A DNA stretch of 32,000 nucleotides from an uncultured Actinomycetes bacterium (GCA_963843975.1 CAWJMG010000003.1:1350001-1382000); one strand, 5' to 3'; positions 10,469 through 27,850 are shown, counted from the first letter of the stretch. Notes: generated by a model not told the origin, from the sequence alone. Translations and numbers: made by a program.

Positions 10469-10472
10469 CGCA

Positions 10473-10512: not shown

Positions 10513-10527
10513 TCGTGCTGCAGCGGG

Positions 10528-12410: not shown

Positions 12411-13610
12411 TCAGGCGGCACCTGCGGGGCGCGGGACGACCAGCAGGAGCATGAGCAGGGCACCCAGCGCGGCGATCAGCATCGTGGCGGGCATCGCCCA
12501 CGCGCCGGGCACGAGCGCGGACACGATCGGCGGGACAAGGGCACCCGCGAGGAACTGCGATGTGCCGAGCAGCCCGGACGCCGTGCCCGCCACGCGCCCG
12601 TGCGGCGTCATCGCAAGCGACTGGGAGTTCGCCGCCATGCCGCCGTACCCGCCGAGCGCTACGACGGCCGTGCCGACGACCCAGGGCAGCGGGACGTCGC
12701 GCACTATCGCGACGAGCAGGAGAAGAGACGCCGCGGCGATGACCGCCAGCCCACGCAGCAACGCACGACGGGGCCCGATCCGGCCGACCGACCACGCGTT
12801 GGCCTGGGCCCCGAGGACGAAGGCGGTCGCCGTGCAGGCGAACACGGCCGAGTACTGCTGCGGCGTGACGCCGTACTGCCCGGTGAGCACGAACGAGCTC
12901 GAGGAGATCCAGCTGAACAGGATGATGCCGAGGAACGAGCCGACACCGAGGTAGCCGAGGAAGGCGCGGTCGCGCAGCAGCCGGCGCACCTCTGCCCACT
13001 GCTCCCGTGGGTGCCCGTCCAGGCGCGCGTGCTCGGGGTGCGTCTCGGGGAGCAGGAAGAACGCCGCAGCGAGGATGACGAGCCCCAGCCCGGCGAGGAC
13101 CACGAACAGGCCTCGCCAGTCGGTCACGCGCAGCAGCTGGCCGCCGAGCACCGGCCCCAGCACCGGGGCGAGCCCCATCACGAGGATGAGCCGAGACAGC
13201 ACCCGTGCAGCCGCGGCGCCCTCGACCAGGTCGCGCACGCAGGCCCGGGCGATGACTGTGCCCGCCGATCCTGCCAGGCCCTGGACGAAGCGCAGAGCGA
13301 GCAGCACCTCGATACTCGGGGCGACGGCGCAGAGGAGGCTGGCCGCCACGAATACGGCGAAGCCGACCAGCAGCGGGGCGCGACGCCCCGTCCGGTCGCT
13401 GATCGGGCCCATCACCAGCTGGCCCAGGGCCAGCCCGACGATCGTCGCCGAGATGGTGAGCTGCGCCTGAGCGCTCGAGCTGCCCAGCGACGCCGCGAGG
13501 TCAGGCAGGCCCGGGAGGTACAGGTCCGTCGCCAGGGGCGCCAGCATGATCAGAGACCCGAGGACGAAGTACATCTGGAGCGGGAACGACCCAACGGTCC
13601 CCTCGCGCAT
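12411..13610 (-). CDS. MFS transporter, Bcr/CflA (DHA1, 12 TMS) family
   Basis: LAPLATDLYLPGLP, GPISDRTGRR and RFVQGLAGSAG motifs. Start is either ATG 13610 (GAGGA 5 nt upstream, used here) or GTG 13628 (track). Confidence 0.85.
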   Translation of the reverse strand: MREGTVGSFPLQMYFVLGSLIMLAPLATDLYLPGLPDLAASLGSSSAQAQLTISATIVGLALGQLVMGPISDRTGRRAPLLVGFAVFVAASLLCAVAPSIEVLLALRFVQGLAGSAGTVIARACVRDLVEGAAAARVLSRLILVMGLAPVLGPVLGGQLLRVTDWRGLFVVLAGLGLVILAAAFFLLPETHPEHARLDGHPREQWAEVRRLLRDRAFLGYLGVGSFLGIILFSWISSSSFVLTGQYGVTPQQYSAVFACTATAFVLGAQANAWSVGRIGPRRALLRGLAVIAAASLLLLVAIVRDVPLPWVVGTAVVALGGYGGMAANSQSLAMTPHGRVAGTASGLLGTSQFLAGALVPPIVSALVPGAWAMPATMLIAALGALLMLLLVVPRPAGAA

Positions 13611-13658
13611 CCCGGTCCTCGTCGTCACCCGGTCATGAATACCCGCTCGTCAGGCGGC

Positions 13659-13672: not shown

Positions 13673-13762
13673 TACCGGTCACCGGCACGACCGCGTTCCA
13701 GCCGGACCGGTGCTGGCCCGACGATCGAGCGACACCCCTACCACCCACCGGAGCGATGACCC

Positions 13763-14614
13763 ATGCCCCTTGAGCTCACCGACGAGGCGACCAGCCGGTA
13801 CGTCCGCACGCCGAGCTGGAACATCCACTACAACGAGGCCGGCGAGGGCCACCCGGTGATCCTGCTGCACGGCAGCGGTGCCGGTGCCTCGGGCTGGAGC
13901 AACTTCCGGCCCAACATCGCACCGCTCGCGGAGAGCTTCCGCGTGATCGCGATGGACGCCCCGGGCTGGGGTCGGTCGGACGCGGCGCTGCCCGAGGTCT
14001 ACGACCACCCCAACGCCGTCCTCGAGCTCATGGACGCCCTCGGCATCGAGAGGGCCGCGCTCATCGGCAACTCGATGGGCGGCATGACCGCGGTGACCTT
14101 CGCCGCCCGCTACCCCGACCGGATCTCGCACCTCATCACGATGGGTCCGGGCGCCTTCATCACGACGCCGACCCTCTTCGGCGCCGGCGACGGCCCCAGC
14201 GAGGGGCTCAAGGTGCTGTTCGAGGGCTACCGGGACCCGACGCAGGCCACGATGAAGAAGCTCGTCGAGATCATGACCTTCGACTCTGCGAACGCCACCG
14301 ACGAGCTCGCTGCCCAACGTGCCGAGAACGCCCAGGCGCGTCCCGAGCACCTCACCAACTTCCTGCAGGGGATGGCGGGTGGAGGCCCTGTCCGCACCGC
14401 GGCCACGGTGGAGCAGGCGGCTGGCATCCGTACGCCGACCCTTCTGCTGCACGGCCGCGACGACCGCGTCGTGCACTTCGAGCACTCGCTGCGACTCGTC
14501 TCGGTGATCCCCGACTCACGGTTGGTGCTGCTCAACCGTTGCGGTCACTGGGCGCAGCTCGAGCATGCGGACGAGTTCAACAGGATCGTGACGGACTTCG
14601 TCCAGAACGCCTGA
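13763..14614 (+). CDS. meta-cleavage product hydrolase, BphD/HsaD/MhpC family, copy 2 (paralog of 11467-12306)
   Basis: 283 aa with HGSGAGA, GNSMGG, HGRDDRVV and CGHWAQLEH. By eye it is roughly two-thirds identical to copy 1 along the full length. Confidence 0.9.
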   Translation: MPLELTDEATSRYVRTPSWNIHYNEAGEGHPVILLHGSGAGASGWSNFRPNIAPLAESFRVIAMDAPGWGRSDAALPEVYDHPNAVLELMDALGIERAALIGNSMGGMTAVTFAARYPDRISHLITMGPGAFITTPTLFGAGDGPSEGLKVLFEGYRDPTQATMKKLVEIMTFDSANATDELAAQRAENAQARPEHLTNFLQGMAGGGPVRTAATVEQAAGIRTPTLLLHGRDDRVVHFEHSLRLVSVIPDSRLVLLNRCGHWAQLEHADEFNRIVTDFVQNA

Positions 14615-14615
14615 C

Positions 14616-14669
14616 CGCACGACGAAGGGGGCCGGCCACATCCTGCGAGCCGGCCCCCTTCGTCGTGCG
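14616..14669. terminator. perfect 21-bp stem-loop between convergent genes (bidirectional terminator candidate)
   Basis: CGCACGACGAAGGGGGCCGGC (14616-14636), 12-nt loop, GCCGGCCCCCTTCGTCGTGCG (14649-14669). It starts 2 nt after the hydrolase-2 stop and ends 9 nt before the permease stop. Confidence 0.7.
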
Positions 14670-14677
14670 TGCCGGCG

Positions 14678-15766
14678 TCAGACCGTCCGCGAGCGGTTGC
14701 GGACGATCTTCGCCAGGGCGACGGCCACGACGAGGCCGGCACCGTAGAAGACGTTCTGGATCCAGCCCGCGAAGCCGAGCAGCTGGAGCCCGAAGATGCC
14801 GGTCCACAGGAAGTAGATGGCGATCAGCGTGCCGATGGGATTGAACATGCCGGGCTGCACGACGGCGGTGCCGAGGAAGACCGCCGCGAGCGCCGGGAGC
14901 AGGAACTGTCCCGACGACGTCGGGTCGAAGCCGCCCAGGGTCGACACGAGCACGAGGCCCGCGAGACCGGCGACGAGCGAGGACCACATGTACGCACCGA
15001 AGCGGATCCGGTTCACCCGTACGCCTGCCAGACGCGCGACCTCGCGATTCGCGCCGACGAAGAGGATGTGGCGGCCCAGCGGCGTGTAGGCCATGAGGTA
15101 CGCGATGCCGACGGCGAGTGCCACGCCGTAGAAGAAGGACACCGGCATGCCGAGGACGGGGAACGACGCCAGGTTGCTGAAGATGTCGTCCTGGATGGAC
15201 ACGACGTTGGACGACGACAGCGCCTGTGAGAGGCCGATGAGCAGCGTGCCCGTGCCGAGCGTGACGACGAGGGACGAGACGTCGAGCACCACGACGAAGT
15301 AGGCGTTGACGGCGCCCACCACGAGGCAGGCGGCGAGCGCGATCAGGCATGCCACCCAGATGTTGACCCCGTGCAGTCCGGCGAGGACCGGCACGATCGT
15401 CGCGGCCAGACCCATGATCGAGGCGACCGACAGGTCGAACTCCCCCACCATCAGGGTGATCAAGGCCGACATCGCGAGGAACACCAGCACAGGCTGGCCG
15501 CCGAAGATGGCGCGCACAGCCCCCCAGGAGCCGAACGAGTCGGGCATCAGGAGGTAGTAGACGAGCGCCAGCGCCGCCCACACCAGCACCAGCGCGTACT
15601 TGCTGGTGACGACATGCAGCCACTGCGGCTCGTAGCGGCTGCGCAGCGTCACGCGGCTCGGCAGCTCCGCCGCCTCGGCCGGCTGGCCGCTGTCGCTGAC
15701 GAGGCGCTGCGTCGCGTCGTCGTCCGCGCTCAGACGCTCGGCTGCGGTCTCGGTCTCGTGCGTCAC
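14678..15766 (-). CDS. ABC transporter permease, RbsC/XylH-like (CUT2 sugar-type, BPD_transp_2)
   Basis: The C-terminal 362 codons of the 872-aa track ORF are multi-TMS with family-typical GEFDLSVASIMGLA and PLGRHILFVGANREVARLAGVRV. GTG start at 15766-15764, with CAGGAGG 6 nt upstream. GTGA overlap with the ATPase stop. Confidence 0.85.
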   Translation of the reverse strand: MTHETETAAERLSADDDATQRLVSDSGQPAEAAELPSRVTLRSRYEPQWLHVVTSKYALVLVWAALALVYYLLMPDSFGSWGAVRAIFGGQPVLVFLAMSALITLMVGEFDLSVASIMGLAATIVPVLAGLHGVNIWVACLIALAACLVVGAVNAYFVVVLDVSSLVVTLGTGTLLIGLSQALSSSNVVSIQDDIFSNLASFPVLGMPVSFFYGVALAVGIAYLMAYTPLGRHILFVGANREVARLAGVRVNRIRFGAYMWSSLVAGLAGLVLVSTLGGFDPTSSGQFLLPALAAVFLGTAVVQPGMFNPIGTLIAIYFLWTGIFGLQLLGFAGWIQNVFYGAGLVVAVALAKIVRNRSRTV

Positions 15767-17296
15767 TGGGAGCCTCCTGGGGCGGCGGTGGTCGTGGTGG
15801 CGTATACGGCCTCGAGCAGCGCGTCGGTCGTGGCGCCGCGCAGCTCGAGGAAGCGCTGGCCGGGGCGGTGGACCAGGACGCGGTCGCACACCTCGGCGAG
15901 GTCCGAGGGCTCGCCGCTCACGTAGAGGACGCCGACACCGCTGTCGGCCACGCCCTGGATCGCGGCCAGGATGTCCTGGCGGGCTCCCACGTCGACGGCC
16001 TGCGTGGCCTCGTGGAGCACGAACAGGCTCGGGACGATCGAGAGCCACTTCGCGAACAGCACCTTCTGCTGGTTGCCGCCGCTGAGCTCCTTCACCAGCG
16101 TCGCCGACGTCCGCGTCCTGATCGACAGCCGGTCGATGAGGTCCTCGGCCTGCCTGCGCTGCCACCGGCGTCCGACGAACCACGAGGTCCCCCGGCGGCG
16201 CAGGCTCGGCAGAGCGATGTTGTCGCTGATCGAGAAGCTCGAGCGCGAGGCCGTCCCGGTCGCGGCGCTCCGGCACGAGCGAGACACCGGCCGCCATGCA
16301 GTCGGCCACCGAGGCGCGTCGCAGGTCGAGGTCGCCGGTCCGGGTGCGCAGCACCCCCGATGTCGCCCGGCGCGCCCCGGTGAGGAGGTAGGGCACCGAC
16401 TCGAATCCCGAGCCGGGGAGGCCGGTCAGGCCGACGATCTCGCCCTCCCGCACCTCGAGGTCCACAGCCGCGAGGCCCTCGCCCGCGAGGTCGGACACCC
16501 GCGCGACGACGGGGCGGTCGGACGCGTCGACGCCGCGCGAGGTCAACGCGCCGACCGTCTTGCCCAGCATGAGGCGAGCCATGTCCTGCGAGGTCAGCTC
16601 GCTCGTGCGCAGCGCCCCGCCGGCGACCTTCCCGTCGCGGAGCACCGTGACGCGGTCCGCGAGCGCGAGGACCTCGTCCAGGTTGTGGCTGACCATGAGC
16701 ACGGAGGTGCCCTCCGCGACAACGCGCCGCAGGAGGGCGTGGAACTTGTCGAGCTCCTCGCGCGGGAGGGCTCGCGTGGCCTCGTCCAGGACGATGAGCC
16801 CGGCACCGGGTCGGTGGTCGCGCAGCGCACGCGCGATCGCGATCTCGGCCCGTCGTGCTGCGCCGAGAGCTGCGACGGGCGTGGACGGGTCCACGTCGAC
16901 GTCGAGCCGTGCGAGCACGTCGGAGGCGACGGCGGACTGGCGCTTCCAGTCGATGCGCCGGAGCAAGCGCGAATGGTGATAGCCGCCGACGCCGATGTTG
17001 TCGGAGACGGTCAGCTGGTCGAGCAGCCCGAGGTCCTGGTGGACCACCGAGATGCCCAGGTCCGCGGCCTCCCGCCACTGGACGGGCAGCTGCACGAGCT
17101 GCCCGTCCAGGGCGAGGGACGCTCCGGAGTCCGGGGAGTGGTACCCCGTCAGGATCTTGACGAGGGTCGACTTCCCTGAGCCGTTCTGGCCGACGAGCGC
17201 GTGGATCTCGCCCGGCTCGACGGTGAGCTCGACGTCGTCGAGGACCTTCGTCGAGCCGAACGTCTTGGAGACGTGGCGGGCTTCCAGGCGCTGCAT
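15763..17296 (-). pseudogene. CUT2 sugar-type ABC transporter ATP-binding protein (two fused NBDs, RbsA-like), interrupted by a +1 frame change near 16231-16240
   Basis: NBD1 and the start of NBD2 are in the frame of ORF 14678..17296 (GQNGSGKST, LIVLDEATRAL, ...GVSLVPERRDRDGLALEL). The rest of NBD2 is in the frame of ORF 15763..16287 (SISDNIALPSL...LSGGNQQKVLFAKWL...VDVGARQDI). The span is 1534 nt, which is 511 codons plus 1 nt. Confidence 0.85.
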
Positions 17297-17331
17297 CGGA
17301 TCTTCCCGTCTTCGCTGGTGGTGCGTCGGAC

Positions 17332-18537
17332 CTACTTGACGCCCCAGGCGGCGAGGAACGTCGCCTTGAAGGCCTCGTCGCCGTACCAGTTCGAGGTCAG
17401 GTACTCCTCGGGCGTGAGGGTGAGGTCGCCGATGTTCGACGAGTCGAAGTAGCGGCCGACCGCCTTGTCGTCGGGGGTGACGGCGTCGCCCGCGAGGAGC
17501 TGGCCGAGGGCGTTGGCGTAGGTCCAGCCGGTGTAGATGACCGGGTTGCCGAAGTCGCCGGCCTGGGTGCCCGCCTTGACGGCCTGCAGGTTGGCGAGGT
17601 CACCCGAGGCGGAGACCACGACGAGGTCGGACTTTCCCGCCGTCTTGGCACCCTGAACGGCCGGGGGCACGAACGAGTCCACCGGGACGAACAGCGTGTT
17701 GATGTCGGGGTTCTTGACCAACGCGGCGCTCACGGCGGAGGCGAGCTTGTCGATGTTCGCAGTGGTGAAGTCGACGGTCGCGAGAGCGCACGTCGGGCAG
17801 ATCTCCTTGTAGCTGGCGATGCCGGCGTCGCTGGCGTTCGTCGTCGTGCTGGAGTCGAGGAGGCGCAGCCACAGGCCGTTGGTGTCGGTGCCGCTCTTGG
17901 CCAGACCGGACTTCGTGATCACGTCGTAGATCCCGTTGACGCGCTCGGTCGGGTCGAAGAAGCCGAGCTTGGGGCCGACCTTGGCGTCACCCGAGGCCGG
18001 GACGCCGCCGACGAGGACGGGGATGCCCTGACCGGTGAGGGCGTCGAAGGCGTTCGGCAGCATGGCGTAGTCGATGAACGCGGTCACGACCGCGCCGGCG
18101 CCCTGCTCGCCGGACTGCTTGAGGCAGTTGCCGACCTCGGCCGGGTTGAACTTGCCATCGCACAGCTTGAACGTTCCGCCGGCGGCCTCGACCGCCTGCT
18201 TGAAGCCCTCGCCGATGCCGTGGATGACCGGGACGGCGTCGCCGATCGGGATCCACCAGACGGTCTTGCCCTTGATGTCGAGGGGCTTGGACGGGGCGGT
18301 CGGCGCGGGCCAGGCCACAGGAGCCTTCAGCGCGTCGAGCTCGGCCTGGACCGCGGCGATCGGGTCGGCGGCCGCGGAGGAGCTCGAGGCCGCGGGGGTC
18401 GAGGAGCTCGCCGCAGCGGAGCTGGACGTGGTCCCGGAGCTGCTGCTGCCGCAGGCGGCGAGCAGCAGGGCGGCCGCAGCGGCGGCGGACACGGCGACCT
18501 TCGACCGGAGGCCGGTCGAGCGAGTCGTGAGGGTCAT
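17332..18537 (-). CDS. ABC transporter substrate-binding lipoprotein (periplasmic-binding-protein type I, sugar-binding-like)
   Basis: Start at ATG 18537 (MTLTTRSTGLRSKVAVS). Signal peptide with lipobox LLLAAC|GSS, then a Ser/Ala/Thr-rich linker, then a PBP1-like body (KTVWWIPIGDAVPV...IPVLVGG...). It is the first gene of the SBP-ATPase-permease operon. Confidence 0.8.
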   Translation of the reverse strand: MTLTTRSTGLRSKVAVSAAAAAALLLAACGSSSSGTTSSSAAASSSTPAASSSSAAADPIAAVQAELDALKAPVAWPAPTAPSKPLDIKGKTVWWIPIGDAVPVIHGIGEGFKQAVEAAGGTFKLCDGKFNPAEVGNCLKQSGEQGAGAVVTAFIDYAMLPNAFDALTGQGIPVLVGGVPASGDAKVGPKLGFFDPTERVNGIYDVITKSGLAKSGTDTNGLWLRLLDSSTTTNASDAGIASYKEICPTCALATVDFTTANIDKLASAVSAALVKNPDINTLFVPVDSFVPPAVQGAKTAGKSDLVVVSASGDLANLQAVKAGTQAGDFGNPVIYTGWTYANALGQLLAGDAVTPDDKAVGRYFDSSNIGDLTLTPEEYLTSNWYGDEAFKATFLAAWGVK

Positions 18538-18854
18538 GTCGGATCCTTCAGGTCGAGCCGCAGGTGCGGCGATGCAGGAGGAACTCCGGCGGCGGGAGCC
18601 TGGTGCGCCGGGAGGGCGTGCGGTCCGAACCCGACCCGGTGGTCCGGGCAACGTTCGGCGTGCGCATCAGGATGGGGACGGCGCCCACGTGGCGGAATGA
18701 CGCCGTGCCGCTCGCTGGAACGACCGCTCCAGATGGTTCGGGGCGCCCGCGTGACGTCACCCGACCGTGACCTCGGTCCCCCGGTCGTGCCGTGACCGTT
18801 CCGGCCAGCGGTCCGACGCGCTGGACCGGCTCCCCCGGGCTTCCTAGCCTCGTC

Positions 18855-18879
18855 GAAACGTCGCCGTAGCGAACGTTTC
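18855..18879. promoter_or_regulatory. inverted repeat GAAACGT-N11-ACGTTTC just upstream of the eight-gene operon (candidate operator or 5'-UTR hairpin)
   Basis: Perfect 7-bp arms in an AT-richer patch. It ends 9 nt before the GAGGAG RBS and 20 nt before ATG 18899. Confidence 0.4.
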
Positions 18880-18898
18880 AGTGCTCCCGAGGAGAACC

Positions 18899-19828
18899 AT
18901 GCCGTCGCCCGAGCTGCCGCCCGCCCTGGCGTCCGCCAGCCCCGCGGACCGCCGAGAACGGCTCCGTGCCGTGCTCGCATCCGGCCAGACGCTCCTGCTG
19001 CCCGGAGCGGCAGACGCTGCCGGCGCCCTGCTCGTGGAGATGGCCGGGTTCGACGCGGTGTACGCCACCGGCGCCGGCATCTCCAACGCGCAGTTCGGGC
19101 TGCCCGACATCGGCCTCGTGTCGCAGACCGAGATCCTCGGGCAGCTCATGCGGATGGTGGCCGCCACCGACCTCCCCGTGCTGGCCGACGTCGACACCGG
19201 CTATGGCAACGTGCCGTCGGTCATCCGCACAGTGCAGCTCTTCGAGCGGGCGGGAGCGTCCGCGCTGCAGCTGGAGGACCAGGCGTTCCCCAAGCGGTGC
19301 GGCCACTTCGACGGCCACACGCTCATCGAGCAGCGAGAGATGCAGGCCAAGATCGCCGCAGCGGTGGCCGCCCGCACGGACCCGAACCTCGTCGTGATCG
19401 CACGCACGGATGCTCGAGGCGTGCTGGGCCTCGACGAGGCGCTACGGCGCGGACACGCATACCTGGAAGCCGGTGCCGACGCCCTCTTCGTCGAGGCTCC
19501 GCAGGGTGTCGAGGAGATGGCCCGCATCGGTCTGGAGTTCACGGGGGTCCCCCTGCTCGCGAACATCGTCGAGGGCGGCAAGACCCCACCGCTTCCCGTC
19601 GACGAGCTCCACGGGCTCGGCTTCTCGATCGTGCTCTATGCCAACTTCCTCATGCGCGTCATGCTCCACGCCGGCAAGGAGGCGCTGGGGCACCTGCGCA
19701 CGACCGGTGAGAGCGCGTCGTACGCCGACCGCATGCTGTCGTGGCAGGACCGGCAGGCGATGTTCCGGCTCGCCGACTTCGGCGACAGCGAGGACACCTT
19801 CCTCGCCGCCTGGGGCGCCGGCTCGTGA
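18899..19828 (+). CDS. isocitrate lyase / PEP mutase superfamily enzyme, lyase clade (methylisocitrate / dimethylmalate lyase-like)
   Basis: LLLPGAADAAGA, ADVDTGYGN and EDQAFPKRCGHFDGH (the K[KR]CGH lyase signature). GAGGAG RBS before ATG 18899; the track ORF starts at GTG 18881. Confidence 0.85.
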   Translation: MPSPELPPALASASPADRRERLRAVLASGQTLLLPGAADAAGALLVEMAGFDAVYATGAGISNAQFGLPDIGLVSQTEILGQLMRMVAATDLPVLADVDTGYGNVPSVIRTVQLFERAGASALQLEDQAFPKRCGHFDGHTLIEQREMQAKIAAAVAARTDPNLVVIARTDARGVLGLDEALRRGHAYLEAGADALFVEAPQGVEEMARIGLEFTGVPLLANIVEGGKTPPLPVDELHGLGFSIVLYANFLMRVMLHAGKEALGHLRTTGESASYADRMLSWQDRQAMFRLADFGDSEDTFLAAWGAGS

Positions 19829-21234
19829 GCGTGCACACCCTCGCCTCGGCGCTCGCCACCCGTCCGCGGCCCGACGTCGTCGTGCTCGGTGCGGGCCAGG
19901 CCGGCCTCACGGCCGCCGTCGCCGCTGCGCAGCAGGGTGCCACCGTCCTCGTGCTCGAGAAGCTGGCGTACGCCGGCGGCTCGACGTCGATGAGCTCGGG
20001 GCTCACGGCGTACGCAGGGACTGACGAGCAGCGAGAGCTGGGCATCGAGGACTCGGTCGAGGCGCTCAAGGCCGACATCCTGGCTACCGGCCAGCACCGG
20101 AACGACGAAGCACTGGTCGACGCCTACTGCCGGGAGCAGCTCACCACCTACCGCTGGCTCAAAGGCCTCGGTGTCGAGTACGGCCACATCCACGCGGCCT
20201 CGGGCCAGAGCGTCCCGCGCTCGCACGCCACCGACCCGAGCCGGATGATCGACACGCTCGTGAAGCGCGCCGAGGAGCTCGGCGTCGCGATCGTCTACGG
20301 CGTCCGCGCATTCCAGCTGATCGTCGCGGACGACACCGTCACCGGCGTCCTCTGCGAGGTCAACGGCAGCCTCACCGACGTGCCCGCCGGCGCGGTCGTG
20401 CTCGCGACGGGCGGATTCAGCCGCAACATCGAGCTGCTCGAGCGCTTCGTGCCCCAGATGGTTCACGCGATCCATGGGGGCTCCCCCGGCTCGGAGGGCG
20501 ACGGCCTGCTCATGGGCTGGAAGGTCGGCGCCGACTTCCGCGACACCCCGTACGTCAAGGGGACCTTCGGCATCTACCCCGGCGACGACCCCCGCGAGGG
20601 GGGTACCGGGATCCTCGCGGTCTACAAGGGCGCGATCGCGGTGAACCTGGCTGGGCGACGGTTCGTCGACGAGTCCCTTCCCTACAAGGCGATCGGGGAC
20701 GCGTGCCTGGCCCAGGAGGGGCACGTGGCCTGGCAGGTGTTCGACGAGCAGGTCATGGCCAAGGACGACCCCGAGGTGCACATCTACTGGTTCTCGGGAC
20801 GGCTCGCGACCGGCCTGCTCGAGACCGCCGACACCCTCGAGGGGCTCGCCGTGAAGATCGGTGTGCCGGTCGAGGACCTCCTCGACTCGGTCGCGTCCTA
20901 CAACGCCGCCGTGCGCGGCGAGCGCCCGGACGAGTTCGGGCGGACGTCGCTGTCCGGATCCTCCGACCGGCCGACCGAGGTCGTCGAGCCCCCGTTCTAC
21001 GCACACCTTTCCGGCGCGTCGGTGCTCGCGACCTACTGCGGGCTCACGGTCGACCCGGAGACGCACGTGCTCGACGTCTACGGGGAGCAGATCCCCGGCC
21101 TCTTCGCAGCAGGCGAGGTGACCGGCGGCTTCCACGGGGCGGGGTACGTGACCGGGACGTCGGTCGGCAAGTCCGGCGTCTTCGGCCGTATCGCGGGCCG
21201 GGCGGCAGCGGAGCATGCCGGGGTGCGCACATGA
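19825..21234 (+). CDS. FAD-binding dehydrogenase/reductase, soluble fumarate reductase / urocanate reductase / KstD (FAD_binding_2) family, copy 1
   Basis: DVVVLGAGQAGLTAAV...LEK...AGGSTSMSSGL...GIEDS...ATGGFS...PGLFAAGEVTGG. The GTG 19825 start overlaps the upstream stop (GTGA). Confidence 0.8.
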   Translation: MSVHTLASALATRPRPDVVVLGAGQAGLTAAVAAAQQGATVLVLEKLAYAGGSTSMSSGLTAYAGTDEQRELGIEDSVEALKADILATGQHRNDEALVDAYCREQLTTYRWLKGLGVEYGHIHAASGQSVPRSHATDPSRMIDTLVKRAEELGVAIVYGVRAFQLIVADDTVTGVLCEVNGSLTDVPAGAVVLATGGFSRNIELLERFVPQMVHAIHGGSPGSEGDGLLMGWKVGADFRDTPYVKGTFGIYPGDDPREGGTGILAVYKGAIAVNLAGRRFVDESLPYKAIGDACLAQEGHVAWQVFDEQVMAKDDPEVHIYWFSGRLATGLLETADTLEGLAVKIGVPVEDLLDSVASYNAAVRGERPDEFGRTSLSGSSDRPTEVVEPPFYAHLSGASVLATYCGLTVDPETHVLDVYGEQIPGLFAAGEVTGGFHGAGYVTGTSVGKSGVFGRIAGRAAAEHAGVRT

Positions 21235-22001
21235 CCGATCTGTTCAGCCTCGAGGGCCGGGTGGCACTCGTGGTCGGCGCGGCCGAAGGTGGCCTCGGCG
21301 CGTACGCCGCACGTGCGCTGCACGACGCCGGCGCGACCGTCGCGCTCGCCGACCTCGTGTCGCGCGAGGCAGATCTGGCTGCGACGGCGCACGCGTGCGG
21401 GTCCGCTGCCACCACGCACGCGGTCGACGTCACCGACGCAGCCTCGGTCACCGACCTCGTCGACGGTGTGGTCGCTGCCCACGGCCGCGTCGATGTGCTC
21501 GTCGCCTGCGCCGGCGCGATGCTCCGCCGCGAGATCGAGGCGACCGAACCGTCCGAGTGGCAGCGCATCATCGACGTCAACCTCACCGGGACGTGGCTGC
21601 TGGACCGCGCCGTGCTCGGGCCGATGCGGCAGCAGGGCTACGGCCGCATCGTGAACTTCTCCACGGTGTACGCCGAGCGCGTCGGCCCGATCCCGGAGTC
21701 GGCGTACTACGCGGCCAAGGCGGGCATCGCCAACGTGACGAGGGCGGTGGCCTCCGAGGCCGGCCGTGACGGGATCACCGCGAACTGCCTCGCACCCGCC
21801 GTCTTCTACCCCACGCGCATGACCGCGCCCCTCGCCGACGACCCCGAGCGGCTCGAGTGGTTCACGGCGCGGACGATGCTCGGCCGTCTCGGCGACCCCG
21901 CGACGGACCTCACGGGCCCGCTGCTGCTCCTCGCGAGCGACGCAGGCGCGTACCTGACAGGACAGATCCTCTACGTGGACGGCGGTTGGTCAGCATGGTG
22001 A
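21231..22001 (+). CDS. short-chain dehydrogenase/reductase (SDR)
   Basis: GRVALVVGAAEGGLG, NFSTVY, YYAAKAG (YxxxK) and ITANCLAPA. ATGA overlap with the upstream stop. Confidence 0.85.
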   Translation: MTDLFSLEGRVALVVGAAEGGLGAYAARALHDAGATVALADLVSREADLAATAHACGSAATTHAVDVTDAASVTDLVDGVVAAHGRVDVLVACAGAMLRREIEATEPSEWQRIIDVNLTGTWLLDRAVLGPMRQQGYGRIVNFSTVYAERVGPIPESAYYAAKAGIANVTRAVASEAGRDGITANCLAPAVFYPTRMTAPLADDPERLEWFTARTMLGRLGDPATDLTGPLLLLASDAGAYLTGQILYVDGGWSAW

Positions 22002-22591
22002 AGAACTCGGCACTGATCCTGGTGGACTACCAGGTCGCGCTCTGCGAGGAGGGCGACCTCTGCCGCCTGCCCGCGCTGGCTGCGCAGGTGCGCGAGCGCG
22101 ACGTCCTGGGACGGGCGTCGACGGTGCTTGAGGCCGCCCGCGCGGCCGGTGTTTACGTCGTCCACGTGCGTCTCGCATTCGACCCGACGTACGAGCTGCG
22201 CTCGAACCGCACGAAGCGCTGGGACGCCTACCCGGCGGACCGAGCGATGCTCGCCGACTCCCCCGCCGCGCAGATCGTCACGACGCTGGCACCCGCCGAG
22301 GGTGAGCCGGTTGTCGTCAAGGGGAGCGTCGACCCGTTCGTCGGCACGTCGCTCACCAACATGCTGCTCGGCAACGGGATCCGGTCGATCGCGGTCGCCG
22401 GCGTCGCCACCAACCTGGCAGTGGAGTCGGCGGTGCGCCACGCAGGCGACACCGGTTTCGACGTCACCGTCATCGAGGACCTCTGCGCCTCGTTCTCGCC
22501 TGCCGCGCACGAGTTCTCGATCGGCACGATCCTCCCGATGTTCGCCACCGTCGCCTCCAGCGACGACTATCTCGCATCCCTGGAGGGCTGA
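21995..22591 (+). CDS. isochorismatase-family (cysteine-hydrolase-like, RutB-like) protein with the nucleophile Cys replaced by Ala
   Basis: ALILVDYQ (Asp), VVVKGSVDPF (Lys) and VAGVATNLAVESAVRHAG, where the family has TNxCVEST. The ATG 21995 start overlaps the SDR stop by 7 nt (ATGGTGA). Confidence 0.8.
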   Translation: MVKNSALILVDYQVALCEEGDLCRLPALAAQVRERDVLGRASTVLEAARAAGVYVVHVRLAFDPTYELRSNRTKRWDAYPADRAMLADSPAAQIVTTLAPAEGEPVVVKGSVDPFVGTSLTNMLLGNGIRSIAVAGVATNLAVESAVRHAGDTGFDVTVIEDLCASFSPAAHEFSIGTILPMFATVASSDDYLASLEG

Positions 22592-22594
22592 GCG

Positions 22595-24028
22595 GTGTCG
22601 CACGAGTTCAACGTCGTCGTCGTGGGATCCGGCATCGCCGGACTGTCGGCGGCGATCTCCGCCCTGGAGTCGGGTGCCCGCGTGGCCGTCGTCGAGCGGG
22701 CGACGCCCGAGGAGAGCGGCGGCAACACCCGCTACACCGAGGCGTTCCTGCGCATGGAGACGATCGAGAAGCCGTCCGACGACCTCGAGGACCGGCTCCT
22801 GGGCGACCACATGGGTCACCCGGACCCGGGGGTCCTCGCCGATGCGATGGCCGAGCGCTCGTCGTGGTCGCAGCCGATGCGCACTCTCGACGTGGCGGAC
22901 GGCGAGATGGTGATGCGGCTCGCCGAGGAGGCGCCCGCGACCCTCGAATGGCTGACGTCGCACGGCATGCGGTTCGACGCCCTGCCGACTCCGTTCCTCA
23001 CCCAGGGCGCGCCCCGCATGTCGCCGGTCGGAGGTGGCTGGGAGCTGGTGACGACCCTGAGCGCGCGCGCACGTGCACTCGGCGCCCAGTACTTCTACGA
23101 GACGACCGCCCTCGGCCTGGTGCTCGACGACGCCCACCGCGTCATCGGCGTCCGCACCTCCCCGGCCGGCGTGATCTCCGGCCGGGTGGTGCTTGCCGCC
23201 GGAGGCTTCGAGGGCAACAGCGAGATGCTCGCCCGCTACATGGGACCTGGCGCGATCAACACGCGACCGGTGGCGCGCGGCGGCCACTACAACAAGGGCG
23301 AGGGCATCGAGATGGCGCTAGCGATCGGCGCCGCCGGGGCGGGCAACTTCTCGCTCTTCCACGCCGAGCCGATCGACCCGCGGTCAGGCGTGGCCGAGGC
23401 GGCGATCTTCGCGTTCAACTACGGGATCCTCGTGAACTCCGAGGGCGAGCGGTTCGTCGACGAGGCCCGCGGCACGATCGACGCCTGGTACGAGCGCGTG
23501 ACGCGCGAGATCCACGCCCAGACCGAGGGAATCGCGTGGTGGGTCTACGACCAGCGCGGCGCGAGCGTGCCGAACATCTCGGTGGGCATCCGCACCGACC
23601 AACCGCCGGTGTCCGCACCCACGATCGAGGAGCTCGCGGTCCGGATCGGCGTTCCGGTCGCTGCGCTCTCGGCGACGGTCGCGGAGTTCAACGCTGCGTG
23701 CCCTGACGAGGCCGGCTTCGACCACAGCCGGCCGGACGGCCTCGCCACGACCGGGCTCGACGTACCGAAGTCGAACTGGTCGCGGCCGATCGAGGAGGGT
23801 CCGTTCCTGGCCTATCCGATCATCGCCGCGAACGTGTTCACGTTCGGCGGCCTGCGCACCGACTCCGAGGCCAAGGTCGTGAACCGCTCCGGCGAGCCGA
23901 TCCCGGGCCTCTACGCGGCCGGCGAGATCACCGGCATGTACTACACGAACTACACCGGCTCGACCTCGGTGCTCCGCGGGGCGGTCTTCGGTCGCGTGGC
24001 GGGCGCGAACGCGGCGGCCTCAGCATGA
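22595..24028 (+). CDS. FAD-dependent oxidoreductase, tricarballylate dehydrogenase TcuA-like (FAD_binding_2), copy 2
   Basis: NVVVVGSGIAGLSAAISALESGARVAVVER...SGGNTRYTEA...AAGGFEGN...PGLYAAGEITG. GTG start 3 nt after the upstream stop, preceded by GGAGGG. Confidence 0.75.
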   Translation: MSHEFNVVVVGSGIAGLSAAISALESGARVAVVERATPEESGGNTRYTEAFLRMETIEKPSDDLEDRLLGDHMGHPDPGVLADAMAERSSWSQPMRTLDVADGEMVMRLAEEAPATLEWLTSHGMRFDALPTPFLTQGAPRMSPVGGGWELVTTLSARARALGAQYFYETTALGLVLDDAHRVIGVRTSPAGVISGRVVLAAGGFEGNSEMLARYMGPGAINTRPVARGGHYNKGEGIEMALAIGAAGAGNFSLFHAEPIDPRSGVAEAAIFAFNYGILVNSEGERFVDEARGTIDAWYERVTREIHAQTEGIAWWVYDQRGASVPNISVGIRTDQPPVSAPTIEELAVRIGVPVAALSATVAEFNAACPDEAGFDHSRPDGLATTGLDVPKSNWSRPIEEGPFLAYPIIAANVFTFGGLRTDSEAKVVNRSGEPIPGLYAAGEITGMYYTNYTGSTSVLRGAVFGRVAGANAAASA

Positions 24029-24822
24029 GGATCTGGCACCAGAGCTTCACGGTGCTCGACGACGTCCCACACTACCGGGACGCGATGGCGCGGCACCTCG
24101 CCATCGTCGTGGGCGACGGCACCGAGATCGACTTCCACGGGATGGCGCCGGGCACGTACCCGTCCGACTACCCGGGCGTGCACATCGGCTACGCCTATCT
24201 CGCCGGGCTGCACAAGGAGCAGTTCGTCCGTGCCGCGCAGCGGGCCCAGGCCGAGGGCTACGACGCGTTCGTCATCGCCACGATCCCGGACACCGGGTTC
24301 GAGGAGTGCCGCAGCGTCGTCGACATCCCGGTGCTCGCGTTCGGCAACACCTCGATCGGGTTCGCCTCCCAGCTCGGCAGCCGGGTCGGCATCGTGCACT
24401 TCATCGGAGGCCTGCGCGACCAGATCCGGCGCAACGTCCGCAGCTACGGCTTCGGCGACCTCGTCGGCCCGATCGTGCAGGTGGACGCACGGTTTCACGA
24501 CATCATGTCGGCCTACGCCGAACCCGCGGGGCTGATCGCAGCGTTCGAGTCTGCGGCGCGGGTGGCCATCGCGGATGGGGCCGACGTGATCGTGCCGGGC
24601 GAGGGACCGCTCAACATCTTCTTGGCCGACCAGGGCGTGACCCGCGTGGACGATGTACCTGTCATCGACTCGCTCGGCGTGCTGCTGCAGTCGGCCGAGC
24701 TCCGGGCAAGCATCTACCGCCGCACAGCGTTGCGCCCTGCGCGCACAGGCTTCTTCCACGCGCAGCCGCCTGCCGAGGCGATCGCGGCGACGCGCGAGTT
24801 CTACCGGACTCTGCAGGCCTGA
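24025..24822 (+). CDS. Asp/Glu/hydantoin racemase superfamily protein lacking both canonical catalytic cysteines
   Basis: MRIWHQSFTVL..., EGYDAFVIATIPDTGF..DIPVLAF and GADVIVPGEGPLN...VPVIDS align to hydantoin racemase blocks (..YVIACFDDPGL.. and ..IVLGCAGMS..). Thr and Glu sit at the two Cys positions. ATGA overlap with the upstream stop. Confidence 0.75.
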   Translation: MRIWHQSFTVLDDVPHYRDAMARHLAIVVGDGTEIDFHGMAPGTYPSDYPGVHIGYAYLAGLHKEQFVRAAQRAQAEGYDAFVIATIPDTGFEECRSVVDIPVLAFGNTSIGFASQLGSRVGIVHFIGGLRDQIRRNVRSYGFGDLVGPIVQVDARFHDIMSAYAEPAGLIAAFESAARVAIADGADVIVPGEGPLNIFLADQGVTRVDDVPVIDSLGVLLQSAELRASIYRRTALRPARTGFFHAQPPAEAIAATREFYRTLQA

Positions 24823-24823
24823 C

Positions 24824-26188
24824 ATGTCGGTGGACGTCGACGTCGTCGTGGTGGGCGGTGGCGGGTGCGGCATGGTCGCGGCGCTGCGCGCCGCGCGCGC
24901 AGGGCTCACGGTCGCGGTGTTCGAGAAGAGCACGCAGCACGGATGCAACACCGAGGTGTCGAGCGGCAGCATCGCGGCGGCGGGCACCCGCTGGCAGCGC
25001 GCGGCCGGCATCGACGACTCGGTGCAGCGACAGGTGGACGACATCGTGCGCGAGAGCGAGGACGAGTCGACGCGCCGTCTGGTCGAGGCCGTGTGCGCCG
25101 TCGCGCCGCTCTACCTCGAGTGGCTGGCAGACGAGCTCGGACATCCCGTGGTGATCGGCGACGACATGCTCCGCCACGGCATGACCGCCCCCCGGCTGCA
25201 CACCGACACCGGGCGCGAGGGCGGCACACGCCTCGTACGGACGTTGCGGGACGCCATCGCCGCCGACGACCGGATCGCCTTCGTCGACAACACCCCCGGA
25301 CTCGGCCTCGTCGCGGACGACGCCGGTGCGGTGCTCGGAGTCGTGGTCGACCAGAACGGTGAGCGCGTGGAGGTGCTGGCGCACGCCGTCGTGCTCGCGT
25401 CGGACGGCTTCGCGGCCAACCAGGACCTGCTCGCAGAGTGGATCCCGGACACGGTCGAGGATGTGTTCCAGGGCGTCTCGACGTCGACCGGCGATGCCCT
25501 CGCGTGGGCGACCAGGCTCGGTGCCGCGACCCGGAACATGGGTTCGTTCCTCGGCAGCGGCATGGTCGTGCCCGGTCACGCGACCCGCGTGAACCCCGCG
25601 CTCCCCTTCTGGGGCGCGATGATCGTGGGCCTGGACGGGCTCCGCTTCCTCGAGGAGCACGACCATGGCTACTCCTCGTTGGGCGCGGTCCTTCGCGCTC
25701 TGCCGGACAGACGGGCCGTACTCGTCTGGGACGAGCAGCTGCACGGGCCGTCGCTGCGCTCCGAGCTCATGCGCGAGTCCGAGCGTGCCGGCGCCTTCCG
25801 CCGGTACGACGACGCCGCATCTCTGTGCGCCGCTCTGGGGATCGACGGCGAGGCCCTCGCCGGCACGCTCGCCGGCTTCGAGGGCCTCGACGAGCGCACG
25901 GGCGACCGACGTCCGCTGGAAGCGCCGTACTACGCGGCCTTCCTGACCAGCGGCATCCTCGCGACCCAGGGCGGACTCGACATCGACACGACCGGGCGGG
26001 TCCTGCGCGAGGACGGCAGCACCATCCCGGGCCTGTACGCCGGTGGCGGCACCGCCACGGGCATCTCCGGCCCAAGCTCGCGCGGCTACTCGTCGGGCAA
26101 CGGGCTCCTGGCGGCACTCGGCCTCGGCTGGATCATCGGCGAGCACCTCGGCGCGCTGCACGGCGCGCCCACGAACCATGCGGAGTGA
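24824..26188 (+). CDS. FAD-binding dehydrogenase/reductase (FAD_binding_2 family), copy 3
   Basis: DVVVVGGGGCGMVAALRAARAGLTVAVFEK...SSGSIAAAGT...GIDDS...ASDGF...PGLYAGGGTATG. ATG lies 1 nt after the upstream stop. Confidence 0.8.
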   Translation: MSVDVDVVVVGGGGCGMVAALRAARAGLTVAVFEKSTQHGCNTEVSSGSIAAAGTRWQRAAGIDDSVQRQVDDIVRESEDESTRRLVEAVCAVAPLYLEWLADELGHPVVIGDDMLRHGMTAPRLHTDTGREGGTRLVRTLRDAIAADDRIAFVDNTPGLGLVADDAGAVLGVVVDQNGERVEVLAHAVVLASDGFAANQDLLAEWIPDTVEDVFQGVSTSTGDALAWATRLGAATRNMGSFLGSGMVVPGHATRVNPALPFWGAMIVGLDGLRFLEEHDHGYSSLGAVLRALPDRRAVLVWDEQLHGPSLRSELMRESERAGAFRRYDDAASLCAALGIDGEALAGTLAGFEGLDERTGDRRPLEAPYYAAFLTSGILATQGGLDIDTTGRVLREDGSTIPGLYAGGGTATGISGPSSRGYSSGNGLLAALGLGWIIGEHLGALHGAPTNHAE

Positions 26189-27096
26189 CAGTGACCAGTG
26201 CGGACAGCACGGACCTCCCGATCCCGGCTCCCACTCTCCCTGGCCAGGGTTCGTGGACGGTCGGCTCGGTGCGGGTCACGCCGCTGTACGACGGGACGCT
26301 CCTCACGCCGCCCGAGCGGCTGTACGCCCTGGCGGACCACCACTACCCCGTCGTCGCCGACGCGCTCGGTCTCCGTGCGGACGACTGGCTCGACCATCAG
26401 TCCGCGCTGACCGACGGCTTCCTCGAGCTGACCTTCGGCGGCTACCTGGTGGAGACCGGGGACGGCCGCATCGTCCTCGTCGACGCGGGGCAGGGCCCGA
26501 CGGACTGGGCCCCCGCACCCGAGGTGGCTCCTCAGCACTACGGCCGCCTCCTGCACAGCATGCGCGACGCCGGCGTGGAGCCGGACGACATCACCGACGT
26601 CGTCATCACGCACCTGCACGCCGACCACGTCGGCTGGGCGGCAACGGACGGCGACCCGACCTTCGCAAACGCGACGTACCGCTGCCATGCCGACGACCTC
26701 GCCCTGTTCGTCCCCGGCGACCCCGTCGCGACCCGGGCGCTCACACCTGCACTCGGCCGCATCTCGCCGTGGACCGGCGCCGGACCACTGCTCGGTCCCC
26801 TGGGCGTCCGCCCGGCTCCCGGTCACACCCCGGGCACGACGGTCGTGACGGTCGAGTCCGAGGGCGAGCGGCTCTGGCTGCTCGGTGACGTCTACCACTC
26901 CGCACCCGAGCTGCTCGAGGCTGTCGGCTGGTGCGGCATGGGCGACCGGGACGCGATCGGTGCGTTCCGGACGCGACTCGCGGTCGCGGACGCGCTCGAG
27001 CACGCGGACATCGCGTTCGCCGCGGCCCACTTCCCCGGGATGCCTCGCCAGCGGCTGATCCGTTCCGACGGGCGTCGTACCCTCGTCGATATGTGA
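26185..27096 (+). CDS. MBL-fold metallo-hydrolase
   Basis: VVITHLHADHVGW (HxHxDH), GHTPG and VYHS. The GTG 26185 start overlaps the upstream stop (GTGA); GTG 26191 is the alternative. Confidence 0.85.
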   Translation: MTVTSADSTDLPIPAPTLPGQGSWTVGSVRVTPLYDGTLLTPPERLYALADHHYPVVADALGLRADDWLDHQSALTDGFLELTFGGYLVETGDGRIVLVDAGQGPTDWAPAPEVAPQHYGRLLHSMRDAGVEPDDITDVVITHLHADHVGWAATDGDPTFANATYRCHADDLALFVPGDPVATRALTPALGRISPWTGAGPLLGPLGVRPAPGHTPGTTVVTVESEGERLWLLGDVYHSAPELLEAVGWCGMGDRDAIGAFRTRLAVADALEHADIAFAAAHFPGMPRQRLIRSDGRRTLVDM

Positions 27097-27195
27097 GGCG
27101 GCTCCTTGCCAGTGCTCGGGCTCGGGAATGCGCCCGCACCGTCCTGCTGTTGCGCCGACAGGTGCCCGCGCGCGCGGGCCGAGGAGAGGCTGGCC

Positions 27196-27850
27196 ATGGC
27201 GGACGTGCTCAAGGTGGATGTGTGGTCCGACGTGGCCTGCCCGTGGTGCTACATCGGCAAGCGCCGCTTCGCCGAGGGCGTGCGCCGCTACACCGAGGCC
27301 GGCGGCGACCGCGTCGTCGAGGTCGAGTACCACTCCTTCGAGCTTCTCCCCCGACACCCCGGTGGACTTCGAGGGCGACGAGATCGACTTCCTCGCCAAG
27401 CACAAGCGCATGCCGGTCGAGCAGGTGCGCCAGCTCATCGGCCACGTGAAGCAGGTGGCCGCCGGCGAGGGCCTCGACTACGACTTCGAGGCGCTGCACC
27501 ACACCAAGACCCTCAAGGCGCACGAGCTTCTGCACCTCGCCAAGGCGAAGGGCAAGCAGGAGGAGATGAAGGAGCGGCTGCTCGCCGCCTACTTCGTCCA
27601 GGGCCGTCACGTCGGGCGCATCGAGGAGCTCGCCTCGCTGGCCGCAGACGTCGGCCTCGACCCCGTGGAGGTGACCGCCGATCTCGAGGCAGGCACCTAC
27701 GGGGACGCTGTGGCTGCCGACATCGCCCAGGGCCTCGCCTACGGCATCAACGGCGTCCCGTTCTACGTGATCGACGGCCGCTACGGCGTGAGCGGTGCGC
27801 AGAGCGCCGACCTGTTCGCCGAGGCGCTGGCGCAGGCGGCGGCGGAGTGA
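27196..27850 (+). pseudogene. DsbA-family thiol:disulfide oxidoreductase (FrnE-like), needing a +1 frame change at 27343-27352
   Basis: The N-terminus is in frame 1 (MADVLKVDVWSDVACPWCYIGKRRF...VEYHSFEL, with CPWC active site). The remainder is in frame 2 (SPDTPVDFEGDEIDFLAKHK...GINGVPFYVIDGRYGVSGAQ...). The junction lies at GAG CTT CTC CCC C, which includes a C5 run at 27348-27352. Confidence 0.85.

Follow-up and report, generated by a model that had tools for sequence, protein, structure and literature searches.

The degradation of steroid rings A and B combines a short-chain dehydrogenase/reductase (SDR) and FAD_binding_2 desaturases with a two-component phenol hydroxylase of the acyl-CoA-dehydrogenase (ACAD) fold and its flavin reductase, a type I extradiol dioxygenase and an alpha/beta-fold C-C hydrolase, under TetR control. 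An SDR and FAD_binding_2 desaturations, with two flavoproteins, likewise convert an alicyclic carboxylate to a hydroxybenzoate in cyclohexanecarboxylate aromatisation (ChcB, ChcC1/ChcC2; NCBIfam models NF053701, NF053676 and NF053677). Other described systems that bear comparison are tricarballylate oxidation (TcuABC), the methylcitrate cycle with its lyase PrpB, and the maleamate branch of nicotinate/hydroxypyridine degradation (NicD, NicF, NicE), with a trio of alpha/beta-hydrolase, isochorismatase-like and Asp/Glu-racemase-like folds. Here we analyse a stretch of 32,000 nucleotides from an uncultured Actinomycetes bacterium (GCA_963843975.1, CAWJMG010000003.1:1350001-1382000; hereafter the window), which carries, divergent from an ATP-binding cassette (ABC) importer, eight genes for a PrpB-like lyase, a flavoprotein (fad1), an SDR, an isochorismatase-like protein, a second flavoprotein (fad2), a racemase-like protein, a third flavoprotein (fad3) and a metallo-beta-lactamase-fold (MBL) hydrolase.

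This locus departs from each of its precedents. The template of steroid ring A opening covers nine of the roughly fourteen conserved genes that we describe, but the cluster is without KshAB, Mce and CoA-dependent genes, its importer is sugar-type, and it adds the lyase, isochorismatase-like and racemase-like genes. Cyclohexanecarboxylate aromatisation is the closest precedent for the core chemistry proposed below; however, scores with the Chc models reach only 80-154 bits against cut-offs of 350-1000 (for ChcC, no more than 136 against 900), there are three flavoproteins here, and differences extend to the additional enzymes and to the meta-cleavage set downstream. Among the flavoproteins, fad2 comes closest to TcuA, and a related module in Variovorax lies beside an annotated tcuA, but fad2 falls below the TcuA cut-off and neither the window nor any locus contains TcuB or TcuC. 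The lyase is 40-45% PrpB-like, with a KRCGH loop, and PrpD-family genes accompany the module in several genomes, whereas PrpC and PrpE are absent here and the lyase stands amid flavoproteins and ring-cleavage genes. The maleamate branch has the same trio of folds, but the NicF-type cysteine is Ala or Val in our cluster, the cysteine dyad of the isomerase/racemase is Thr/Glu, and the racemase-like protein belongs to the hydantoin-racemase, not the maleate-isomerase, subtype.

All equivalog scores (PrpB, TcuA, HsaA, HsaB, HsaC, HsaD, KstD, ChcC) are below their cut-offs. These scores, the lack of catalytic cysteines and the absence of TcuB and TcuC (no such domains among the window genes scanned or the called genes of loci L029-L039) exclude an identity with the tricarballylate, nicotinate or methylcitrate pathways, and full-text literature searches gave no characterised cluster of this content. 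In these respects the original prediction, made from the window alone, was right that the combination matches no known pathway. The Rut, biuret/cyanurate, hydantoin and vitamin B6 pathways were also considered, and were rejected because scores fell below threshold, catalytic cysteines were lacking or partner genes were absent. The locus is therefore a catabolic operon of known enzyme families whose combination and active-site variants have not been described before; it is not a categorically new system, and there is no evidence of a new principle.

Results

A conserved core within a larger gene set

A genome-collection scan with the racemase-like protein returned 28 loci, to which contig look-ups added more. 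Counts out of 19 refer to the loci with a racemase-like copy at least 50% identical to that of the window and at least 14 kb of sequence. Clear orthologues of fad1 and of the SDR, isochorismatase-like and racemase-like genes are present in all 19 loci, and the lyase in 18. The same number have clear orthologues of fad2 (59-89% identity) and fad3 (48-79% identity), the exception being Salinibacterium (L031), which has only paralogues of 31% and 30% identity, respectively. Gene order is the same throughout. These loci come from Actinomadura, Spirillospora, Actinocorallia, Thermomonospora, Nocardioides, Knoellia, Geodermatophilus, Streptomyces, Salinibacterium and several metagenome-assembled genomes (MAGs), and the genes are also found in Intrasporangium, such that the neighbourhood, whose co-conservation had been named as a check on the original prediction, is shared by at least ten actinobacterial genera.

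The conserved unit does not coincide with the eight genes, which are not a system complete in itself. An orthologue of the MBL gene occurs in only one of the 19 loci (L015), other genomes having unrelated MBL types nearby, and this gene is a lineage-specific accessory and not a conserved member. The conserved partners of the core are instead genes resembling HsaABCD of steroid degradation (Hsa-like genes), for an HsaA/HsaB-like two-component monooxygenase with one or two HsaA-like components, a BphC/HsaC-like extradiol dioxygenase and BphD/HsaD-like hydrolases, together with a pair of TetR genes. In the actinobacteria, the core always has either a sugar-type importer or ring-opening enzymes encoded in its vicinity. 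Within 10 kb of the core, a BphD/HsaD-like hydrolase is encoded in 16 of the 19 loci, and an HsaA-like oxygenase and an extradiol dioxygenase in 13 each. The Hsa-like genes and the core belong to a single co-directional run in Knoellia, Streptomyces and Thermomonospora (in the order ACAD-fold oxygenase, alpha/beta hydrolase, ACAD-fold oxygenase, extradiol dioxygenase, lyase, fad1, SDR, isochorismatase-like, fad2, racemase-like, fad3), followed by a flavin reductase of about 400 amino acids (aa) and two TetR genes. In Intrasporangium and Knoellia, the genes for a substrate-binding protein (SBP), ATPase and permease precede HsaA-like, BphD/HsaD-like, HsaA-like, extradiol dioxygenase and lyase genes in a co-directional run that continues with fad1, the SDR and the rest of the core; a gene for an HsaB-like flavin reductase and two TetR genes are close by.

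Orthologues of every extra member are present in the upstream part of the window, between 2587 and 14614 (Table 1). The HsaA-like protein shares 52-56% identity with the pair of operon copies found in Streptomyces, Knoellia and Intrasporangium; the second BphD/HsaD-like hydrolase (11467-12348) is 63% identical to the Streptomyces operon copy, and the first (13763-14614) is 78% identical to the Geodermatophilus copy beside fad3 and 90% identical to that of L015. The flavin reductase is 46% identical to a 416-aa reductase beside the Streptomyces cluster. It had been noted that no regulator gene lies within 14678-27096, which is correct, but the conserved TetR pair stands upstream, in fused form: each half matches one of two separate TetR genes in Streptomyces L035 (48% and 42% identity), and the window's double TetR gene is either a gene fusion or the product of a lost stop codon. 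Separate, adjacent TetR genes lie beside the cluster in Streptomyces, Knoellia and Salinibacterium. The best explanation is that these eight genes form the distal portion of a larger actinobacterial catabolic set. The unit should be redefined so as to take in the Hsa-like genes, the reductase gene and both TetR genes, with the MBL gene as an accessory.

Beyond the Actinobacteria, a Variovorax plasmid carries a reduced module, ordered fad2-like, SDR, isochorismatase-like, racemase-like, fad1-like, whose first flavoprotein is 57% identical to fad2. Genes for TTT binding proteins, the annotated tcuA and a gene of the MmgE/PrpD family adjoin it, and ring-cleavage genes are lacking. In a Rokubacteria MAG, a more distantly related racemase-like gene occurs with TctA, PrpD-like, FAD_binding_2 and OYE-type reductase genes, a TRAP system and ETF, again without ring-cleavage genes. 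Genes of the MmgE/PrpD family lie beside the module in L004, Salinibacterium, Variovorax and Rokubacteria.

Operon structure

The window is of high GC content throughout (69-74%), and because long open reading frames (ORFs) commonly arise by chance in such DNA, gene calls rested on third-position GC (GC3). GC3 is 0.87-0.96 in all 13 genes of the unit, the eight plus-strand genes and the three divergent transporter genes among them, which identifies them as genuine genes and not as ORFs that arose by chance in DNA of 71% GC. The Pfam scan matched the predicted eight-gene order exactly (plus strand, 18899-27096). Inspection of start and stop codons at the nucleotide level bore out the tight junctions as well: four junctions (19825, 21231, 24025 and 26185) are GTGA or ATGA overlaps, a fifth (21995) overlaps by 7 nt, and the remaining two leave 3 nt (22595) and 1 nt (24824) between genes. 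The start codon of the lyase gene (ATG, 18899), preceded by a GAGGAG ribosome-binding site, is divergent from that of the SBP gene (ATG, 18537) across 361 bp, as had been stated. Together these observations support a single tight operon. Several imperfect palindromes lie in the 361-bp region, none of them shown to be conserved, and consensus promoter and terminator scans of this high-GC DNA gave no matches.

A gene of the DsbA-like/HCCA-isomerase family (27128-27850, plus strand) starts 31 nt after the MBL stop codon. Its copy in L004 (89% identical) adjoins a Dus gene far from the core, and because that copy stands apart we regard the gene as part of the flanking sequence, outside the operon.

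Table 1. Coordinates of the core operon, the importer and the associated genes in the window.
Feature	Coordinates	Strand	Evidence or remark
PrpB-like lyase, PEP_mutase/ICL	18899-19828	+	Pfam; alternative GTG start 18881
fad1, FAD_binding_2, soluble fumarate-reductase/TcuA/KstD family	19825-21234	+	Pfam, NCBIfam
SDR oxidoreductase	21231-22001	+	Pfam, NCBIfam
Isochorismatase-like protein	21995-22591	+	Pfam; catalytic Cys absent
fad2, TcuA-like FAD_binding_2 flavoprotein	22595-24028	+	Pfam, NCBIfam
Hydantoin/allantoin-racemase-fold protein, Asp_Glu_race	24025-24822	+	Pfam, structure model
fad3, third and most divergent FAD_binding_2 flavoprotein	24824-26188	+	Pfam, NCBIfam
MBL-fold lactonase-like hydrolase, Lactamase_B	26185-27096	+	Pfam, HLHADH motif
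Divergent control region SBP/lyase, 361 bp	18538-18898	none	Junction check
Lipoprotein SBP, divergent Peripla_BP_4, CUT2 type	17332-18537	-	Pfam, lipobox
CUT2 ABC ATPase, frameshifted near 16235-16239	15763-17296	-	GC3 frame plot, tblastn
BPD_transp_2 permease	14678-15766	-	Pfam; GTG start 15766 overlaps ATPase stop
BphD/HsaD-like meta-cleavage-product hydrolase	13763-14614	+	BphD 266, HsaD 237 bits (HsaD cut-off 400)
Second BphD/HsaD-like hydrolase	11467-12348	-	BphD 247, HsaD 241 bits (HsaD cut-off 400)
BphC/HsaC-like extradiol dioxygenase	10528-11421	-	TIGR03213 (BphC) 275 bits, HsaC 242 (cut-off 450)
HbpS-like (DUF336) protein	10013-10468	+	Domain scan
Fused double TetR regulator, 448 aa	8645-9991	+	Two TetR_N stretches
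HsaA-like oxygenase component, ACAD fold	7143-8321	-	NF045629 375 bits (cut-off 450)
Acylpyruvate-hydrolase-like gene	5344-6240		46% identical to gene preceding Knoellia SBP
HsaB-like flavin reductase, extra C-terminal domain of about 230 aa	2587-3891	-	HsaB 181 bits (cut-off 230)
MhpD-like hydratase	927-1730		Part of meta-cleavage context

The ABC importer

The importer has the features of the CUT2 (ribose-type) class, i.e., a Peripla_BP_4 SBP, a double-ABC ATPase of about 500 aa and a BPD_transp_2 permease, and its pairing with the operon proved genuine, since orthologues head the same operon in Knoellia and Intrasporangium calvum (in strain DSM 43043, CP002343, the cluster lies around 3.495-3.516 Mb). 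In both, the SBP, ATPase and permease genes lie directly upstream of the Hsa-like-to-core run in the same orientation, with identities (SBP 44-48%, ATPase 59-66%, permease 69-70%) comparable to those of the core genes. The window permease is 69-78% identical to the permeases of L004, L037, L038 and L039, and Streptomyces has a BPD_transp_2 gene at the importer's position. When only 10-kb flanks are considered, the importer is found in 4 of the 19 loci, a figure that reflects the flank limit.

A sequence search of the PDB with the SBP gave no match, and no NCBIfam model matched it; the protein, a lipoprotein with the lipobox LLLAAC29 (lipobox Cys29), was placed by fold search only. Its structure model (pLDDT 87.6) shows a ribose-binding-protein-like fold, with target-normalised TM-scores of 0.58-0.86 at 13-19% identity. 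The modelled fold suggests a small, polar and non-aromatic ligand.

An 872-aa ORF spanning 14678-17296 is an artefact of a frameshift in the ATPase gene: the coding frame changes twice in the GC3 frame plot, and when the intact 512-aa ATPase of L004 is used as a tblastn query the match splits at 16235-16239 between frames -2 and -3. The orthologues are intact at 512-514 aa, and the window copy, with its single frameshift, is either a pseudogene or an assembly error. We favour the latter because the closest relative, L015, likewise shows fragmented ORFs.

The importer genes are also found in other arrangements. Three close MAGs have the lyase gene in the opposite orientation to that of the window (L001 4752, L004 4722, L005 4703, minus strand), at the head of a lyase-SBP-ATPase-permease operon. 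Thermopolyspora flexuosa (L038, 7254-13863) has an orthologous ABC operon (59-77% identity) without the core, beside a P450 and a ferredoxin gene and divergent from an HbpS-like gene 48% identical to that of the window. Because this copy adjoins a core-less ABC operon, the HbpS-like protein seems to travel with the transporter.

Altered active sites

That the catalytic cysteines are missing had been noted from the window alone, and this is true of both the isochorismatase-like protein (Ala or Val) and the racemase-like protein (Thr/Glu). Aligned to the cysteine hydrolases 6xj4 and 6xix, the isochorismatase-like protein keeps the Asp (DYQ) and the Lys (VVKG) and has Ala in place of Cys, and this position is Ala or Val in 17 of 17 orthologues, Variovorax included; it thus lacks the Asp-Lys-Cys triad of the family (NicF, RutB, BiuH type).

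The racemase-like protein is predicted to adopt the two-domain racemase fold (pLDDT 86), and Foldseek comparison of the model with the Klebsiella allantoin racemase (3qvk/3qvj) gave TM-scores of 0.73 (query-normalised) and 0.78 (target-normalised). The catalytic dyad of the Klebsiella enzyme (KpAllR) is Cys79/Cys184 (PMC12661438). The corresponding residues here are Thr86/Glu193, invariant in 22 orthologues, so that the cysteine dyad is lacking. Among 117 representatives of the wider family the residue pairs include S/E (22), T/E (19), C/C (14) and C/E (12), i.e., Glu is the majority residue at the second site and is paired with Ser, Thr or Cys. From this distribution, Thr/Glu looks like an alternative acid/base pair and not like decay. 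No NCBIfam model matched the racemase-like protein, and the names given in the source records are generic ("allantoin racemase", "aspartate/glutamate racemase family protein"). Its family is of moderate size: at E <= 1e-3 it comprises 1321 representative clusters, and at E <= 1e-30 it comprises 49. The Cys-less hydantoin-racemase-fold family comprises about 480 clusters (50% identity) at E <= 1e-10. Fusions of the racemase-like gene were considered, but the long hits are without a second domain and look like read-through artefacts.

The three flavoproteins are only 28-36% identical to each other and, at 454-477 aa, are of the short TcuA/flavocytochrome type. Residues His365, Arg402, His504 and Arg545 of Fcc3 are replaced in fad1 by Tyr, Tyr, Leu and Tyr. 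All three flavoproteins have Tyr at the Arg402 and Arg545 positions and are without the His504/His505-type histidines of fumarate reductase; in fad2 an equivalent of His365 may survive. Because its key residues are replaced, fumarate-reductase chemistry is ruled out. The tyrosines align with Tyr319 and Tyr466 of 3-ketosteroid delta4-(5alpha)-dehydrogenase (4at0), and the position of its Ser468 is Thr in fad1 and Ser in fad3. With the TcuA model NF006130, fad2 scores 345.3 bits (its best NCBIfam match; cut-off 369), fad1 223 and fad3 100; with TIGR02485, fad2 scores 198 bits (cut-off 372.55). Scores with KstD are 119-161 bits against a cut-off of 789, and both KstD and the ChcC1/ChcC2 ring desaturases are among the NCBIfam relatives of the three proteins.

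In the lyase, the KRCGH loop is at residue 138 of the 315-aa form that begins at the GTG at 18881. Scores with the PrpB models TIGR02317 (272 bits, cut-off 354.4) and NF008455 (237 bits, cut-off 353), together with matches to 4iqd and PrpB structures (E 1e-61 to 1e-47), place it as a probable lyase-type member of the superfamily and not as a PrpB equivalog. The nearest solved relatives of the SDR are the DHPS dehydrogenase HpsO, gluconate 5-dehydrogenases and BbsD. The MBL protein keeps the HxHxDH motif (HLHADH), and its nearest solved relatives are lactonases of the dihydrocoumarin-hydrolase and methyl-parathion-hydrolase kind.

Other features of the upstream region

The C-terminal domain of the flavin reductase gives a faint IclR_C-like signal, as do its counterparts in L031 (12377-13573), L034 (12174-13364) and L035 (14014-15264). 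A reductase with an extra domain is reminiscent of reductase C1 of p-hydroxyphenylacetate hydroxylase, which is ligand-regulated. The Salinibacterium gene is co-oriented with a TcuA-like flavoprotein gene and not with an oxygenase gene.

Two genes for drug-efflux-type major facilitator superfamily (MFS) transporters, of the Bcr/CflA (12411-13628) and EmrB (3851-5395) families, lie on the minus strand amid the catabolic genes, and a Bcr/CflA copy with 50% identity is divergent from the lyase gene of Geodermatophilus (L030). Two divergent promoter regions, at 8444-8455 (HsaA-like/TetR) and 13674-13685 (MFS/hydrolase), contain exact copies of the palindromic 12-mer ACCGGTCACCGG, possibly a TetR operator. 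The SBP/lyase region lacks it, and it has a single match (L013) among 36 related loci. Between convergent genes there are perfect, long GC-rich hairpins at 14615-14677 (hydrolase/permease) and 10469-10527 (HbpS-like/extradiol dioxygenase); these are probably bidirectional terminators, of a kind that a terminator scan based on T-tails misses.

Discussion

Gene content, operon structure, co-conservation and the loss or replacement of catalytic residues are directly observed in these loci. From them we infer a substrate class, an order of steps and a role for each enzyme. Because the fold of the SBP suggests a non-aromatic ligand, yet a phenol-type hydroxylase and a meta-cleavage set are encoded, the aromatic ring must arise or be exposed within the cell. 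The reading that we tentatively prefer, although we regard it as somewhat short of probable, is import of a small polar alicyclic or hydroaromatic acid and its oxidation by the SDR and flavoproteins to an aromatic product, followed by Hsa-like ring opening and PrpB-like cleavage.

Under this scheme, the importer would bring in a small, polar, alicyclic or hydroaromatic carboxylic acid, and the SDR would oxidise a ring hydroxyl to a ketone. The three flavoproteins of the TcuA/KstD family would then introduce C=C bonds beside the carbonyl or carboxylate until the ring became phenolic, by the logic of steroid ring A or cyclohexanecarboxylate aromatisation. The Thr/Glu racemase-fold protein might epimerise, or shift a proton at, the carbon adjacent to the carbonyl, allowing all isomers to enter, and the Cys-less isochorismatase-like protein could act as an Asp/Lys hydrolase of the enol-ether or ester type and not as an amidase. 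The phenol would next be hydroxylated to a catechol, which would undergo extradiol cleavage and hydrolysis. Finally, a resulting 2-hydroxy dicarboxylate or tricarboxylate would be cleaved by the PrpB-like lyase to give a 2-oxo acid and a (di)carboxylate.

Several observations weigh against this scheme. The flavoproteins score higher with TcuA and flavocytochrome c than with the KstD and ChcC models, and the nearest solved relatives of the SDR use open-chain hydroxy acids or sulfonates. The Variovorax and Rokubacteria loci have no ring-cleavage genes and are accompanied by TTT or TRAP carboxylate transporters, a further TcuA and MmgE/PrpD genes, and such neighbours suggest polycarboxylate chemistry. 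We had considered the Tyr/Tyr signature of the flavoproteins as a marker of ketone versus carboxylate substrates, but it failed in this role, as the annotated TcuA of Variovorax has both tyrosines. More specifically, the cluster could encode an undescribed CoA-independent route, in which ribose-type uptake of a sugar-like alicyclic acid is followed by aromatisation by flavoproteins and an SDR, Hsa-like meta-cleavage and a PrpB-like last step, with two enzyme subfamilies whose catalytic residues would be new, a hydrolase relying on Asp/Lys only and a Thr/Glu isomerase; so detailed a version is rather unlikely to be right in full.

The order of events might also be reversed: a phenolic acid with a carboxylated side chain would be imported and its ring opened first by the Hsa-like enzymes, after which the seven-gene core would degrade the released polycarboxylic acid without CoA, through TcuA-like alpha,beta-dehydrogenations, SDR oxidation, epimerisation and PrpB-like cleavage. 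We consider this unlikely, though it is the main alternative: fad2 is nearly a TcuA by score (345 against 369 bits), the lyase is PrpB-like, MmgE/PrpD genes adjoin the module in the four loci named above, the proteobacterial versions combine carboxylate transporters (TTT or TRAP) with an absence of ring-cleavage genes, and the SDR resembles hydroxy-acid dehydrogenases. However, a ribose-binding-protein-like SBP would be odd for a phenolic acid, three flavoproteins exceed what a short side-chain acid needs, and the core has no conserved hydratase, although the passage from dehydrogenation to SDR oxidation would require one. A less probable account is that of the original prediction, in which the importer and the seven or eight genes suffice to import a polar compound (a polycarboxylate, cyclic amide or sugar acid), oxidise it stepwise and end with a C-C lyase; the link with meta-cleavage would then reflect shared regulation or a catabolic island. 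The partnership with the importer has held up, but oxidation of such a compound alone has not, since it leaves the ring-cleavage genes of the same operon unexplained. It is true that the Variovorax module occurs without Hsa-like genes, that in the window these genes form separate transcription units 0.1-16 kb upstream, and that the SBP fold and the SDR relatives fit a sugar acid. Nevertheless, an uninterrupted co-directional run with gaps of 8-60 bp unites the Hsa-like genes and the core in five genera, Hsa-like genes lie within 10 kb of the core in 13-16 of the 19 loci, and their identities track those of the core genes.

The Hsa-like genes also raise the prospect of a variant cluster for steroid or secosteroid rings A/B, with a 3-hydroxysteroid dehydrogenase, KstD-like desaturases and HsaABCD. 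HsaA, HsaB, HsaC and HsaD are indeed among the best-scoring NCBIfam models for the flanking genes, and KstD is among the hits of all three flavoproteins, but every one of these scores is under its cut-off (HsaA 375/450, HsaB 181/230, HsaC 242/450, HsaD 237-241/400, KstD 119-161/789). Moreover, KshAB (including the Rieske protein KshA), Mce, side-chain and HIP (C/D-ring) genes were not seen in any locus, the importer is of a sugar type, and the lyase, isochorismatase-like and racemase-like proteins have no steroid counterpart. This makes a steroid substrate very improbable.

Many actinobacterial genera of soil and freshwater carry the gene set, and no core protein has a characterised orthologue. 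Cultured carriers, such as Intrasporangium calvum, a Knoellia, Actinomadura nitritigenes and Thermomonospora, make the set a clear target for discovery of its substrate. Identification of the substrate would add a catabolic pathway for a probably common plant- or microbe-derived compound, and it would give functions to the Cys-less hydantoin-racemase-fold and Cys-less isochorismatase-like families, as well as to three orphan branches of the TcuA/fumarate-reductase flavoproteins. The cluster also places Hsa-like genes, "steroid" genes that serve as markers of steroid degraders, outside a steroid context.

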